Source of the DNA: Rhodothermales bacterium | GTDB taxonomy: Bacteria; Bacteroidota; Rhodothermia; Rhodothermales; VXPQ01 | Assembly: GCA_022821845.1 (NCBI GenBank) | Contig: JAJECT010000024.1 | Location: forward strand, 2,393 to 66,392 | DNA length: 64,000 nucleotides | Direction of reading: 5' to 3' | Shown here: piece after piece, positions 51,861 through 63,962 of the stretch | How positions within the stretch are numbered: the first letter of the stretch is position 1 | How the letters are laid out: every line of letters begins with the position of its first letter | Made by a program: the position numbers and the translations under genes | The notes under the pieces: model-generated | Told to the model about the DNA's origin: nothing | The model's database searches: none | Seen by the model: only the letters and a program-made list of their open reading frames with translations

Positions 51861-51908
51861 TATACATTTTTTGCATAATAAAGGGGTATTTTATGCAATT
51901 ACTGCATA
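51861..51908 (+). promoter_or_regulatory. two copies of the TATRC-N7-GCATA palindrome, 31 bp apart, upstream of the TPR gene
   Basis: TATACATTTTTTGCATA at 51861-51877 and TATGCAATTACTGCATA at 51892-51908. Same motif and same 31-bp period as the array at 62641..62790. Confidence 0.4.
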
Positions 51909-51936: not shown

Positions 51937-53208
51937 ATGCGCCCGGCCCGGTTTCTTCGCCATATCTCCTGTTTTGCGCTCCTCGTCGCCACGGCGTGCA
52001 TCATTGCGGGCGGGTGCCGCTCTGGCGCAAACGAGGGCGACAAGCGAGCCGAGGCGCCCGCATCGGTCCCGGCGGTCATTCCCTTGTCCCCCGACGCAGA
52101 ACGCTTCGTGCGGGAGGCGCGGCGGGCGCTGGGCCGGCGGAATTACGCGCAGGGGCTTGCGTGGGCCGACAGCGCGATAACCCATGCGCCCTTTGCCCCC
52201 GACGGGCACTTCGTGCAGGGCCTGATCCGGTTCGAATTGGGACGCATGGACGAAGCCGAGGCATCGTATCGCGAGGCCCAGCGCATACAGGCCGATTACC
52301 CCGGCCTGGCCCACAACCTCGGCAATGTGGCGTTCGAACAGAAGCGGTACCGCGATGCCTTGGCTTACTACGTACGCGAAACAGAACGCAACCGCGACCC
52401 CAATCCATGGCACGGACTGGGCGCTACGTACGAAACGCTGGGCGACCCCGCCGAAGCGCGGGAAGCCTACGAACAGGCCCTTGTCGTCGATCCGAACTAC
52501 GCGCCCGCCCATGCCGCGCTGGCCGACTGGCACGAACGCGAGGGCGATTTCCCGACCGCGCTGGCCCACGCCGAAGCGGCGCTGGCGCTCGACAACAACC
52601 ACCTCGACTGGCGCTACAAGACAGGCGCCCTGCTGCGACGAACCGGACAACCCGCGGCGGCCCTGCCGCACTTGCGCGCCGTGCTGGACGCGCAGCCCTG
52701 GAATTACCAGGCCGCCTTCTCCCTGGGGCAGTCTCTGCGGGATCTGGGGCGCCTGGGCGAAGCAACCCGCGTGCTGGACCAGGGCAACCGGTTGCGCGCC
52801 GAGCAGCAGGACGTAGAACGCTACGGTCGCGAGGCCCGCCTTGCGCCGGAAAGTTTTCAGGGGTGGTTGACGTACGCCGACGCCCTGCGGCGTTCGGGGC
52901 GGCTTGCGGAAGCGCTGAACGCCTATCATGTCGCCCTCAGCCTGCGACCGAATAACCTGGCGCTGCAAGCCAACATCGCCACGCTCTATGCGCAAACAAA
53001 CCGGCCGGGCGAAGCCGAAGCGTTGTTTCGTCAGGTCCTGCGCGCGGATTCGACCCATGCCGAGGCGTGGGTAAACCTTGGCTTGCTGTATCTGCGGGCG
53101 GGAGACAGGGCCCAGGCGGACGCTGCGCTGCATCGCGCCTTTCGGTACGGCGAAGGGAATCCGGCGGTAGAGGGGGTTCGGGAGCGGCTCCAGCGGCCGC
53201 CGCAATAA
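51937..53208 (+). CDS. tetratricopeptide-repeat lipoprotein
   Basis: Lipobox IIAGGC. About ten TPR units (repeated A..Y..AL..DP....A pattern). Confidence 0.85.
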   Translation: MRPARFLRHISCFALLVATACIIAGGCRSGANEGDKRAEAPASVPAVIPLSPDAERFVREARRALGRRNYAQGLAWADSAITHAPFAPDGHFVQGLIRFELGRMDEAEASYREAQRIQADYPGLAHNLGNVAFEQKRYRDALAYYVRETERNRDPNPWHGLGATYETLGDPAEAREAYEQALVVDPNYAPAHAALADWHEREGDFPTALAHAEAALALDNNHLDWRYKTGALLRRTGQPAAALPHLRAVLDAQPWNYQAAFSLGQSLRDLGRLGEATRVLDQGNRLRAEQQDVERYGREARLAPESFQGWLTYADALRRSGRLAEALNAYHVALSLRPNNLALQANIATLYAQTNRPGEAEALFRQVLRADSTHAEAWVNLGLLYLRAGDRAQADAALHRAFRYGEGNPAVEGVRERLQRPPQ

Positions 53209-59558: not shown

Positions 59559-62333
59559 TTAAAAGCGGTAGTTGAGTCCCAGGCTGATTCTTCGCGGGGC
59601 GCCGAAAAATTCCTGTCGGTAGAACCACTCGTCGATGGTGTTCAGGCCGCCCACTTCGCCGCCCGTGCGGCGCAGCCGCTCCAGTTCCACGGACTCGTCG
59701 GCGCGGCCCGTGTCGGAATACACGTTGACTTCCTGCTCGATGTCGAACAGATTCTGCACTTGCAAGAAGAGCTGGACGTTCGGGCCAAGGAACGGCGGCT
59801 TGTAGTACGCGCGCACGTCCGTGCCGTACGTAATCGGCCGCGCAGCGTTGTTTTTAAGGGTGGACACGACGTTGTCGCGAATCGTGGTGTACGGGGTGCC
59901 GCTCTGGAAACGGTTGATGAGCGTGAGGTTCAGCCCGCTGACCGGATTGATTGTGACCGTGTTGTTGAGCACGTGGCGGCGATCCCAATCGAGCCGAACG
60001 AGGGAAAGAATGGCCTCCAGACCCGATTGCTGCCGCCCGAACGCCTCCCCGGGACTCGACGAGGTGCCCTCGGCGAATTGCAACGTGTAGTCCAGGGTCC
60101 AGCTCAGCCGGCCGCCGGGACGCTGAAAAAGCGAGAAGGTCATGCCGCGAATGGTGCCGAAGTCCCGATTGATCCAGCGAATGGCGAAGTCGCCGTTGGG
60201 ATTGCGCAAAATGTCCTGTCCGGTGAGGTTGCGCACGTCTTTCGAAAAGATCGTCAGTTCCAGTCCGACATCGTCCGTCAACCCCTGTTGCAGCCCCACT
60301 TCGAAGGAAAGCGTGCGTTCCGGTTTGAGATTCGGGTTGCCGAAACTGTTCACGCTGGACGTCGGGTTGATTTCGTATTCGGGATTGGAATACAAAATGC
60401 TGAACGCCGGCACCTGAAAGAACAGCCCCGCCGAGAACCGCATCACGCCCGTCGCCGAAATGGGAAAGGCGATGCCTACGCGGGGGCTGAACTGGTATTG
60501 CACAGGCGCCTTTTCCCGATTCGAAATCGAGGCGGACGGATTGGACGGATCGGGAATATCCGTCAGGTTCGCCTGCTGCCAATCCAGGGGAATCAGGTAG
60601 TCCGGGTCGAAATAATCGAAGCGCAGGCCCACATTCGCAATCAGGCCCGTGAATTCCATTTTGTCCTGGACGTAGGCCGAAAATTCCTTCGGAGACGTAT
60701 TGAGGCTGTTGTCGCCCCACATGTCCGGCGAAGGCTGGGGAAGATTGCCGGTCCGGAAGGACTTTTCAATGCCGAAATCCCGATTGTCGAGGTTGTGCAG
60801 CCGGAGCAGAAAACCCGTTTTCACCAGGTGCACCCGCGTCGCCTGGCGGGTGTAGTCGCCGACGATGCTATGGGTGGCGGTAAGCTGGTCGCTGGTGTTC
60901 AAATCGTTGCCGCCCACCGCAAAGGCGAACTGGCCTTGCAGGGAACCCAGCTGGCTCGACTGGTAGCGCGAATCGGTAGGATCCTCGTAGAGGCGCACGT
61001 CGGTTTTGTCGTGCAGGTAGCTATAGGACAGGTTGGCGAAAGACCGGTTGTCTACGGTCCAGCGCAGCCCGGCGATGTGCGTCTGGTTCAGAAATTCGAC
61101 CTGGTTGATGCCGTCCGGAACGTATTTGCGGAAATGACTGAACGGATCGAAGGTGCCGCCCTGGAAAAAGAAGTTGTAATCGACCTTGAATTTCGGGGTA
61201 ATCCGAAACCCGACCGTGCCGTTCACCGACAGGCGTTCCGTACGGTTGCGGGAGGTGAAATCGCCGTCGCCCGTGGATTCCACAAGCCATGCTTCGGGCG
61301 GCAGCCCGGTATTCAGGTTGGCCGACGAGTCGGAGGGCGAAAAAAGGTCGCGCCCGATGAAATGGGAATGATCCCGCAGATACCGCACCGAAGCTTGCAG
61401 CCCAAGCCGGTCCCGAAGCAACGGGCCGCCCAGCGACGCCTGCGCGTCGACGATGTTGGGGAATGCGGCGGCCTCGGTGTAGCTATAGCGCTCGGACACG
61501 AAATCGGAGGGCGCGAGAAAAGTCCCCGGCTCCACGGTGCGGTTCAGAAACTCCAACTCGCGGTTGCTCACGATAGCCCCCGCGTAACTCAGGAACGAGC
61601 CGGACCAGCGGTCGGGCAAGTCTTTCGTTACAATATTCACCACGCCCGACAGCGCCTGCCCGTACTCTGCGTTGAACACGCCGCTAATGACCTCCAGGCT
61701 CGACACCATGTTTTGTTCTACGTCGAACGAGGCCGTCTGGCTGAAGGCGTTGTTGATGGGCACCCCGTTCACGAGATACGCCACTTCGCCGATGCGCCCG
61801 CCCCGGAAATGGCCGTCCACCACCCCGGCTTGCAAGTTGATGACGTCCCCGATGTTCGTGATGGGCAAGGCTTCGAGCTGCTCGCTATCGACCACCGCCT
61901 TGGTGGTCGTGCGGTCCATCTCGACGATGGGGCGCTCTGCGATCACGACCACTTCCTCGCCCTCGATAATTTCCTCGCGCAGCGCAAAGTCCACGGTGGT
62001 GGTATTGTCCTGCACGACCTTGACGTTCTCCACCGTAACCGTCGCGAATCCGATGAACGAGGCCTGCACGGCGTACGCGCCGGGCGGCACGTTCAGGATA
62101 AAGTAATAGCCGTCCGCATCCGTAGTCCCGCCTTGCACGGTGCCCGCGATCACCACATTCACGCCCGGAAGCGGGTCTCCCGTGGCGGCCTCCGTGACGC
62201 GGCCCGATATTTTTCCGGTGGGCCCGGACGGCGCCGCGAACGCCGCTGCGGACAGCGAAGCCATCGCGCAAACAACCAGCGGCAGAACGGCCAGCCACAG
62301 ACGATTATATGTAAATCGCGCGCAAGGGATCAT
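59559..62333 (-). CDS. TonB-dependent receptor with N-terminal CarboxypepD_reg domain
   Basis: Start refined to MIPCARFTYNRLWLAVLPLVV. GKISGRVTEAATGDPLPGVNVVIAGT...DADGYYFILNVPPGAY (CarboxypepD_reg), then plug and 22-strand barrel. C-terminal ...LGLNYRF. Confidence 0.9.
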   Translation of the reverse strand: MIPCARFTYNRLWLAVLPLVVCAMASLSAAAFAAPSGPTGKISGRVTEAATGDPLPGVNVVIAGTVQGGTTDADGYYFILNVPPGAYAVQASFIGFATVTVENVKVVQDNTTTVDFALREEIIEGEEVVVIAERPIVEMDRTTTKAVVDSEQLEALPITNIGDVINLQAGVVDGHFRGGRIGEVAYLVNGVPINNAFSQTASFDVEQNMVSSLEVISGVFNAEYGQALSGVVNIVTKDLPDRWSGSFLSYAGAIVSNRELEFLNRTVEPGTFLAPSDFVSERYSYTEAAAFPNIVDAQASLGGPLLRDRLGLQASVRYLRDHSHFIGRDLFSPSDSSANLNTGLPPEAWLVESTGDGDFTSRNRTERLSVNGTVGFRITPKFKVDYNFFFQGGTFDPFSHFRKYVPDGINQVEFLNQTHIAGLRWTVDNRSFANLSYSYLHDKTDVRLYEDPTDSRYQSSQLGSLQGQFAFAVGGNDLNTSDQLTATHSIVGDYTRQATRVHLVKTGFLLRLHNLDNRDFGIEKSFRTGNLPQPSPDMWGDNSLNTSPKEFSAYVQDKMEFTGLIANVGLRFDYFDPDYLIPLDWQQANLTDIPDPSNPSASISNREKAPVQYQFSPRVGIAFPISATGVMRFSAGLFFQVPAFSILYSNPEYEINPTSSVNSFGNPNLKPERTLSFEVGLQQGLTDDVGLELTIFSKDVRNLTGQDILRNPNGDFAIRWINRDFGTIRGMTFSLFQRPGGRLSWTLDYTLQFAEGTSSSPGEAFGRQQSGLEAILSLVRLDWDRRHVLNNTVTINPVSGLNLTLINRFQSGTPYTTIRDNVVSTLKNNAARPITYGTDVRAYYKPPFLGPNVQLFLQVQNLFDIEQEVNVYSDTGRADESVELERLRRTGGEVGGLNTIDEWFYRQEFFGAPRRISLGLNYRF

Positions 62334-62640
62334 GGCGACAGGATAGCGGCTACGCAATGGGCGGGCATGGGAATGCGAAGGATTGGGCGGCGCCTCGCGA
62401 TGCGCGCGGCGGGCGTTCCCGGCCTCAGGGCGTTGGGGGGCAGGGGATACGGTTGCTTGCATGGCGCCTGAATCCCGAACGGAATCTGATTCCAGAAGCA
62501 ACACAATAAGATAATTATGGATTACTTGCAAAAATAATATTTGAAATGGTTCGGATTTCCCGGATTAGCCAGGGAAGGGAGCGGGCGAATGTACGCAAAT
62601 CAGGGCGCGTTTGGGTATTTTCAGGGCGCTGCAAGGCAAC

Positions 62641-62790
62641 TATGCGTTTTTTGCATGAAAAGGCCCTTGTCTATGCGTTTTTTGCATAGAGAAGCGTTTG
62701 CCTATGTGCTTTTTGCATAGAAGACGTGTTTGTCTATGCGTTTTTTGCATAAAAATACTTGTGTCTATGCAATTTTTGCATAATAGAGCC
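62641..62790 (+). repeat. five tandem 31/32-bp units, each carrying a TATGC-N7-GCATA palindrome
   Basis: Units start at 62641, 62672, 62703, 62735 and 62766, for example TATGCGTTTTTTGCATAGAGAAGCGTTTGCC. Lies in the divergent intergenic region between the TonB receptor (start 62333) and the methyltransferase (start 62943). Confidence 0.7.
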
Positions 62791-62942
62791 TGGCCAAGTC
62801 CGCGTTGTATGCCGCAAGGCGCTGGCGCGCCGGACGAAAGGTTTTGATCGGCGCGGCCTTGACAATCTCGTGGCGGACGGCGTATACTACAGGCCGAAAA
62901 CGACGCGCCCGCCGCTATCCTGCATTTATGCCCGCTTGATTT

Positions 62943-63962
62943 ATGGCCCTTTCGTCCGCAAAACGATCCGCCGCTCGTTCTATCGCTGCGAACGGCGTAC
63001 AATCCGTTGTAAACGAGTACGACGAGATCTACGCCGAAGGATTGGAGACCAGGAAAAAACGTTATCAGTCCTTCGTCAACAACTACTACGACCTCGTAAC
63101 CGATTTTTACGAATTCGGCTGGGGGCAATCCTTTCACTTCGCCCCCCGGCGCCGGGGCGAACGGTTCAAGGCGTCGCTGCTCAGGCACCAGCGTTACCTT
63201 GCGGATACGCTGTCCCTGAAACCGGAGATGCAGGTGCTGGACGCAGGATGCGGCGTCGGAGGCCCCATGGGCAATATGGCTCGCTGGACCGGCGCCCGCT
63301 TCGTCGGCGTCAACAACAACGCGTATCAGATCGAGCGCGCCAGGAAGCATACCGGGGACGTCCGCTCGCTATGCCGATTCCTGCACGCCGACTACATGAA
63401 TATCCCCGAGGGCGACCATGCCTACGACGCGGCCTTCGCGATCGAATCCATGCCGCACGCGCCCGACAAAACAGCGGCGTTTCGGGAAATTTTTCGCGTA
63501 CTGCGGCCAGGAGCCCGGTTTGCGGGCTACGAGTGGTGTCTTACCGAGCGTTTCGACCCCGAGGACCCGGAGCATTTGCGCATCAAACACGATATCATGG
63601 TAGGAGACGCGCTCCCGGACATTTCCAGTCCGTCTGACATTTGCAGCGCGTTGCGCGACGCCGGTTTCGAACTGCTCGAAGCCCGCGACCTCGCCCCCGA
63701 ATCGGATCCGGAAACGCCGTGGTACCGCGCCCTGCAAGGCCGCGACTTCTCCCTTGCGAGCATTCCGCGTACGCCTGCCGGCCGCGCCCTGACGAATCTG
63801 ACCTTGCGGGTTGGCGAACGGCTGCGTCTGGTCCCGCAGGGATCGAGGGCTGTCAGCACATTGCTCAATGCAGCAGCCGACGCGCTGGTCAAAGGGGGCG
63901 AACACGGTGTTTTTACGCCCATGTTTCTGTTTGTGGCGCGTAAACCCGGAAAGGCGGAATGA
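62943..63962 (+). CDS. sterol 24-C-methyltransferase (Erg6/SMT) family SAM-dependent methyltransferase
   Basis: Collinear over its full length with eukaryotic SMT1/Erg6 as I recall them: YYDLVTDFYEFGWGQSFHF, VLDAGCGVGGP, NNNAYQIERA, YEWCLTERFDPEDPEH, and C-terminal FTPMFLFVARKP (Sterol_MT_C signature). Confidence 0.85.
   Translation: MALSSAKRSAARSIAANGVQSVVNEYDEIYAEGLETRKKRYQSFVNNYYDLVTDFYEFGWGQSFHFAPRRRGERFKASLLRHQRYLADTLSLKPEMQVLDAGCGVGGPMGNMARWTGARFVGVNNNAYQIERARKHTGDVRSLCRFLHADYMNIPEGDHAYDAAFAIESMPHAPDKTAAFREIFRVLRPGARFAGYEWCLTERFDPEDPEHLRIKHDIMVGDALPDISSPSDICSALRDAGFELLEARDLAPESDPETPWYRALQGRDFSLASIPRTPAGRALTNLTLRVGERLRLVPQGSRAVSTLLNAAADALVKGGEHGVFTPMFLFVARKPGKAE

Follow-up and report, generated by a model that had tools for sequence, protein, structure and literature searches.

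The window analyzed here is a 64-kb stretch (C36:2393-66392) of a 2.8-Mb assembly with 61% GC, hereafter G000. Between a gene for a TonB-dependent receptor (59562-62333, minus strand; CarboxypepD_reg, Plug and barrel domains) and a divergently oriented sterol-methyltransferase-like gene (62943-63962, plus strand; Sterol_MT_C) lie five unstranded palindromic sites: TATGCGTTTTTTGCATG at 62641-62657, TATGCGTTTTTTGCATA at 62672-62688, TATGTGCTTTTTGCATA at 62703-62719, TATGCGTTTTTTGCATA again at 62735-62751, 32 bp after the third site, and TATGCAATTTTTGCATA at 62766-62782, which matches the genus consensus perfectly. The first-pass annotation had described five units arranged head to tail, with starts at 62641, 62672, 62703, 62735 and 62766 and a period of 31/31/32/31 bp, each ending in TTGYC, and had placed them between divergent genes that start at 62333 and 62943. 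This description holds: the linkers finish in TTGYC-like sequence, and Pfam confirms the identities of both flanking genes. Tandem Repeats Finder reports a 31-bp tandem period at 62640-62782 (4.6 copies, score 156). The array was also correctly set apart from CRISPRs, since its linkers are only 14 bp long and semi-conserved, whereas CRISPR spacers are unique and about 25-50 bp long.

Exact copies of TATGC-N7-GCATA occur four times in the window, where 0.01 are expected from shuffled sequence, and a search allowing up to one mismatch recovers all five units of the array plus a pair at 51861/51892. This second locus had been reported as the same palindrome occurring twice, exactly 31 bp apart, upstream of a TPR gene, and so it proves to be. 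Its unstranded distal site (TATACATTTTTTGCATA, 51861-51877) begins 10 bp past the stop codon of a DUF5916 gene, and its proximal site (TATGCAATTACTGCATA, 51892-51908, likewise unstranded) is found 29 bp upstream of the TPR-repeat gene's ATG (51937-53208, plus strand). The “looser relatives” that had been listed at about 11352 and about 1127 show mere half-site resemblance and are not sites. A weak unstranded site (TATGGATTACTTGCAAA, 62516-62532) does lie in phase with the five-site array on the TonB-receptor side, 125 bp or 12 turns from its first site; its conservation in the sister species is only partial, and spacings of 125 bp are seen elsewhere among the arrays too.

The methyltransferase gene has a sigma-70-like promoter (TTGACA-N18-TATACT; 62859-62888, plus strand), which starts 77 bp past the array and is identical in the sister species. 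It is the sole recognizable promoter in this intergenic region, and the array sites lie about 120-250 bp upstream of it. Upstream of genes, the sense strand is enriched in TTGAC-N16-19-TAnnnT (33 to 10), whereas Bacteroidetes-type TAnnTTTG promoters show no enrichment there. Promoter scans beside four other arrays found no consistent promoters. The sterol-methyltransferase-like gene itself is accessory, with orthologues only in its own species and the closest relative; a paralogue of 40-43% identity is present, without an array, in two further species.

Site anatomy and helical phasing

We compiled 214 sites in 68 arrays. The sites conform to Y-TATGC-R-W5-Y-GCATA-R. The TATGC and GCATA cores are near-invariant (95-100% per position), with T3 conserved in 100% and A15 in 99% of the 214 sites to give a T-N11-A pattern; these values overestimate core conservation, since exact cores served to find most of the loci, while flanks, centers and spacings are free of that bias. 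Arrays contain two (34 arrays), three (4), four (20), five (6) or six (4) sites, and the linkers between them run from A-rich through GC-rich to T-rich.

Of 146 spacings, 117 measure 31 bp, which gives a pair a length of 48 bp. The other spacings (41/42, 51-53, 62/63, 73, 115 and 125 bp) correspond to 31 bp plus whole helical turns, and the 29 spacings that differ from 31 bp yield a Rayleigh R of 0.87 at a period of 10.4 bp. Every site therefore falls on the same side of the DNA, and what had been proposed for the array in the window, that all sites share one face, is statistically strong over 68 arrays. Very probably, then, an array is a set of same-face sites for an oligomeric protein.

A-tract or T-tract centers recurring every three turns, together with linkers that alternate between AT and GC, predict coherent bending. 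The arrays could accordingly be read as intrinsically curved DNA made of phased A-tracts, with no dedicated sequence-specific protein. This is scarcely credible: near-invariant TATGC/GCATA cores are needless for curvature and point to base-specific readout.

The palindromic form of the units raises a different possibility, that they are selfish or structural repeats of the REP/BIME or MITE kind, or that they form hairpins, in RNA or in DNA, which terminate transcription or stabilize mRNA. Some arrays lie at gene 3' ends and some between convergent genes; arrays grow by tandem duplication; some are paralogous in an all-against-all BLAST comparison; and those on contigs C6, C21 and C40 are homologous over their full length. 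The sites themselves, however, do not behave as stems. Their centers are A- or T-tracts that are not complementary to one another, and self-complementarity is below chance both at positions 7/11 (72 vs 101 expected) and at positions 8/10 (62 vs 100). Mismatches of the type A6-C12 are common (38 sites), and the compensated G6-C12 combination is found in only 2 of the 214 sites. A- and T-tract centers combined with absent stem covariation indicate protein sites and not hairpins. Rfam covariance models match tRNAs only, with no family found at the sites, and on both counts we reject the RNA or hairpin reading. Strict helical phasing would, moreover, be meaningless for hairpins or for transposition. 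REP/BIME and MITE elements are not a fitting description of units whose stems lack covariation, which occupy only about 12 loci per genome, and which in adk and lptD were made in place by point substitution, free of insertion (see below). Although some arrays are paralogous, the origin in place of the coding-embedded pairs leads us to reject a mobile repeat as well. This family of explanations is thus largely refuted, and we hold it to be extremely improbable.

Paralogy among arrays is illustrated by two four-site arrays in G000, one at yceI (C6:62336-62645) and one at a GlmU-like nucleotidyl-transferase gene (C21:58494-58802). These share the array and a leader of about 170 nt (80% identity over 314 bp) and represent a duplicated control module. 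The genome also has a second repeat family, with units of about 110 bp that bear no relation to the palindromes, at C21:58941-59053 and in at least 15 other places, several of them at contig ends.

Distribution within the genome, the genus and beyond

Across G000 the consensus is TATGCAA-N3-TTGCATA, present at about 12 loci and nearly always as pairs exactly 31 bp apart. Sites with at most one mismatch number 31, and the reversed control motif has none. The genome scan called for by the first-pass annotation thus finds a rare and specific motif, and no generic promoter element.

Phased pairs are present in 12/12 genomes of one uncultured Rhodothermales genus, at 7-29 per genome. No phased pair was found in 29 further genera from the same family and order, and in seven sister genera of the same family single sites are absent too. 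We extended the search for exact pairs to 185,579 species, each represented by one genome, and found them almost confined to MAGs labelled Rhodothermales bacterium (e.g., OZ246975.1, OX638293.1, JAJDWX01, CAZSNF01). The dozen stray exact-pair matches outside this group, in other phyla, amount to isolated occurrences or to long hairpins of an unrelated kind, and no recognizable gene for a LysR-type regulator (LTTR) was found beside them. Among the matches, L027 and L060 come from a gammaproteobacterial MAG (OZ255703.1, 38% GC), in which convergent genes are separated by long perfect hairpins (TATGCTAATTTTGCATA ... TATGCAAAATTAGCATA); the hairpins belong to an unrelated REP-like family that matches the pattern by chance.

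On two complete chromosomes the sites are dispersed all around, and we reject a role as chromosome-organization sites near the origin or terminus. The genes that neighbor the arrays (envelope, repair, folate, transport, catabolic) show no obvious functional coherence, and a literature search on the motif found no paper on this system.

Conserved loci and site pairs inside adk and lptD

Arrays occupy orthologous loci across species, with a variable number of units. They are found after an EgtD-like gene (8 genomes), after oxoprolinase (6 genomes), before exonuclease I (6 genomes) and before yceI (5 genomes), and additionally between RuvA and an amidohydrolase, before FolB, and between the convergent genes for gyrA and an aminotransferase. 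Conservation of the arrays in related genomes, which had been suggested as a check, is therefore seen across all 12 species. That unit number might vary at random between strains, with no effect on expression, had been named as a possible objection. The number does differ among close relatives: the array that has five contiguous sites in the window has 2+2 sites in the sister species, by way of a 114-bp tandem duplication. Phase, on the other hand, is always kept, so that arrays change by duplication yet stay in register. One further four-site array in G000 lies 17 bp from the start of a gene for a 277-aa protein without a Pfam match (C36:124233-125066, minus strand), in a stretch of 55% GC; other species have different genes on that side of the array.

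Two pairs lie within the coding sequence of essential genes, each with its sites 31 bp apart: one in adk (C26:6155-6202) and one in lptD (C10:56511-56558), the latter 57 codons past the start codon. In outgroups the adk segment reads L-D-V-P-T-D-V-I-V-D-R-L-S-K-R-R-V-H-K and is encoded by GC-rich codons. In the genus it reads L-C-T/I-N-x-I-I-E-R-L-S-M-R-R-M-H-R, and its codons (CTA TGC ... ATA ATA ... ATG CGT AGA ATG CAT AGR) spell out two sites. The conserved Val-Pro of adenylate kinase has become Leu-Cys, with loss of a conserved proline, and the pair in lptD was made in the same way. Substitutions across the coding-embedded pairs include Pro to Cys, Lys to Met and Val to Met, and rare AT-ending codons are used. 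Both alignments are free of gaps, which shows that the sites arose by substitution, including non-synonymous substitution, and not by insertion; having arisen in place, the pairs are not mobile repeats. They are retained in 11/12 species and absent from all outgroups. These comparisons show that selection acts on the DNA itself. In the remaining species, G007, both have decayed, yet about 20 other pairs are kept.

Taken at the level of sequence, rarity, phasing, conservation and readout of the DNA support what had been predicted from the window, a multi-site operator for a dimeric regulator, or a nucleoprotein scaffold, that would serve a small regulon. The prediction can be sharpened: the half-sites form a LysR-type box, the likely binder is the single LTTR of the genus as a tetramer on each 31-bp pair, and the regulon would include sites between convergent genes and in coding sequence.

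A LysR-type regulator as the candidate binder

LTTR boxes are interrupted dyads with a T-N11-A pattern (PMC2724274). An LTTR tetramer contacts two sites, one for recognition near -65 and one for activation near -35 (PMC4730206), at a distance of about 30 bp from each other; the dyads are two or three turns apart and give a footprint of 50-60 bp (PMC4730206, PMC2724274). The motif described here shares the dyad and its spacing. It is an interrupted dyad, ATGC-N7-GCAT, with T3-N11-A15, and its spacing of 31 bp (117/146), with pairs of 48 bp, corresponds to two dyads per tetramer at two or three turns and a footprint of 50-60 bp. Known LTTR boxes include ATAC-N7-GTAT and ATAG-N7-CTAT, with which ATGC-N7-GCAT may be compared.

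The genome encodes exactly one HTH_1/LysR protein, from a gene at C29:11284-12186, outside the window, and a gene for an MFS sugar porter always follows it. Orthologues of this LTTR are present in 12/12 genomes of the genus (75-100% identity), with a nearly invariant wHTH. None was found in 29 neighboring genera sampled, seven of them of the same family, where the best match is 43% identical. The LTTR and the motif thus have the same phyletic distribution. Moreover, a pair of sites lies 22-30 bp before the start codon of the LTTR in 11/12 species, and in the twelfth, G007, an insertion of roughly 270 bp splits the proximal site. From this agreement of distribution, box type and position, we consider the genus's only LTTR the probable binder of the arrays, at a probability of roughly 0.7. 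Close to the intact gene, about 6 kb away, G000 also carries a 92-bp fragment copy of the LTTR gene (C29:5233-5323, 84% identity), near a low-GC island with a Dcm-like methyltransferase.

Several features of the arrays are at odds with an ordinary LTTR. Sites in the window lie about 120-250 bp upstream of the only recognizable promoter, which would put them off the classical -65/-35 positions. LTTRs usually combine one strong and one weak site, whereas here every site is a strong palindrome and an array may contain as many as six. Arrays between convergent genes, at 3' ends (the EgtD-like and oxoprolinase genes) or in coding sequence are beyond ordinary promoter control. Homologues of the LTTR outside the genus, finally, have their two boxes at a distance of 22 bp and not of 31 bp.

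Such convergent-intergenic and intragenic arrays would be easier to reconcile with an architectural protein than with a classical LTTR, and similar half-sites are known in unrelated families such as RsaL and AphA. The binder could accordingly be a different oligomeric DNA-binding protein restricted to the genus, for example an Xre/CI-like repressor or a nucleoid-associated protein, with the LTTR gene as one of its targets. Our survey of regulators covered HTH_1/LysR, Lrp/AsnC, PadR and Rrf2, so that another genus-specific protein, of the Xre type or of some other HTH family, could be the binder. Of the families surveyed, PadR (AphA-like) and Rrf2 (NsrR-like) genes are not encoded in the genome and are rejected as binders. 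Two further observations argue against a different protein, which we regard as rather improbable. Homologues of the LTTR in other Rhodothermales families, where arrays are lacking, still have ATGC-N7-GCAT before their own genes: P0008 (50% identity), G036 (41%) and G024 (37%) all carry exact boxes upstream, paired 22 bp apart, where a 200-bp region would contain an exact box by chance with a probability of about 0.003. The box type also changes along with the recognition helix of the LTTR. Among the homologues compared (L150-L165, L159, L161), ATGC-N7-GCAT boxes accompany a helix of the form ..LSR(H/Q)I.., and in more distant homologues ATAT-N7-ATAT boxes accompany ..PPLSQ.I.. instead. This covariation may represent one element of an LTTR recognition code.

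In anatomy the arrays also resemble Lrp operators very closely. In the Lrp paradigm, 15-bp palindromes with AT-rich centers form four to five regular sites separated by 15-17-bp spacers, and the DNA is wrapped around an octamer (PMC10201364, PMC2995911). The arrays of BarR, Ss-LrpB and FL11 resemble ours in their AT-centered palindromes, in their four to five same-face sites about 30-32 bp apart, and in the wrapping of DNA around an oligomer (PMC10201364, PMC2995911). An octamer of Lrp/AsnC type could wrap the DNA with one dimer on each AT-centered palindrome and about 31 bp between dimers; our sites are indeed regularly spaced AT-centered palindromes, and the genome has one Lrp/AsnC gene (C6:9551-10027). 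The distribution of that protein, however, does not match that of the motif. Lrp is found throughout the order with a virtually identical helix-turn-helix, whereas the motif, single sites included, is missing from all other genera sampled. Nor is there a site upstream of the lrp gene. We reject Lrp/AsnC as the binder on the grounds of distribution and rate it as very improbable.

Comparison with known operators

The genus-wide LTTR remains our preferred candidate, and the arrays share much with characterized LTTR operators. Like those of BenM, CbnR, OxyR and DntR, for which a sliding dimer model has been put forward (PMC4730206), they are built of a 15-bp T-N11-A dyad with a 4-7-4 layout, would offer each tetramer two dyads at a distance of about three turns, include a site before the regulator gene, and would involve bent DNA. 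They differ in that both dyads are strong, in that phased arrays reach six sites, and in that 7-29 pairs per genome would serve a single LTTR; some, furthermore, are far from promoters, between convergent genes or in coding sequence. A parallel for the higher-order arrangement is CrgA of Neisseria meningitidis, an octameric LTTR that binds two adjacent 30-bp T-N11-A sites with a period of about 33 bp, and on whose sites higher-order LTTR assemblies form (PMC2724274). Unlike the arrays described here, CrgA has one local target region, and genome-wide arrays or coding-embedded sites are not described for it.

Outside both the LTTR and the Lrp/AsnC families, the NrdR boxes, reportedly described by Rodionov and Gelfand in 2005, are palindrome pairs 31-32 bp apart and so have a similar spacing. 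Their consensus is different, and they are restricted to genes for ribonucleotide reductase, which none of the flanking genes here encodes. The element is thus of a known kind, the LTTR-type operator, in an unusual form: multiplied, strictly phased, spread genome-wide for one regulator, and set within essential coding sequence.

Proposed mechanism and significance

The analysis establishes the sites, their phasing, their conservation throughout the genus, selection on the DNA, and their co-occurrence with the LTTR and the operator before its gene; that the LTTR binds them we infer, as we do the stoichiometry of binding, the regulatory sign and the effector. One tetramer would occupy each 31-bp, three-turn pair. 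Arrays of four to six sites could accommodate two or three neighboring tetramers, all on one DNA face, and odd-numbered arrays, such as the one with five sites, would allow alternative registers. The A-tract centers and the linkers alternating between AT and GC would help the DNA to curve around the protein. Located midway between the promoters of the divergent TonB-receptor and sterol-methyltransferase genes, the array in the window may control one or both of them, possibly through a DNA loop that reaches the weak site in phase with it on the receptor side (62516-62532).

A bolder reading, possible if unlikely, is that the LTTR has turned architectural and chromatin-like. Chains of tetramers, assembled on the phased arrays, would then serve beyond promoters: where genes end or converge, as roadblocks or insulators, and within the essential genes adk and lptD, whose proteins would have been altered to host the sites, as elongation brakes.

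Whichever role it plays, the one LTTR of a small genome appears to have perfectly phased multi-operator arrays throughout its genus. With two to six sites per array, spaced at 31 bp or at 31 bp plus whole turns, these arrays offer a ready and testable system for studying how LTTR tetramers cooperate, and the correspondence of LSR and LSQ helices with ATGC and ATAT boxes would contribute a small piece of the LTTR recognition code. The pairs in adk and lptD, finally, appear to be a clear natural case of regulatory DNA overriding protein-coding constraint.
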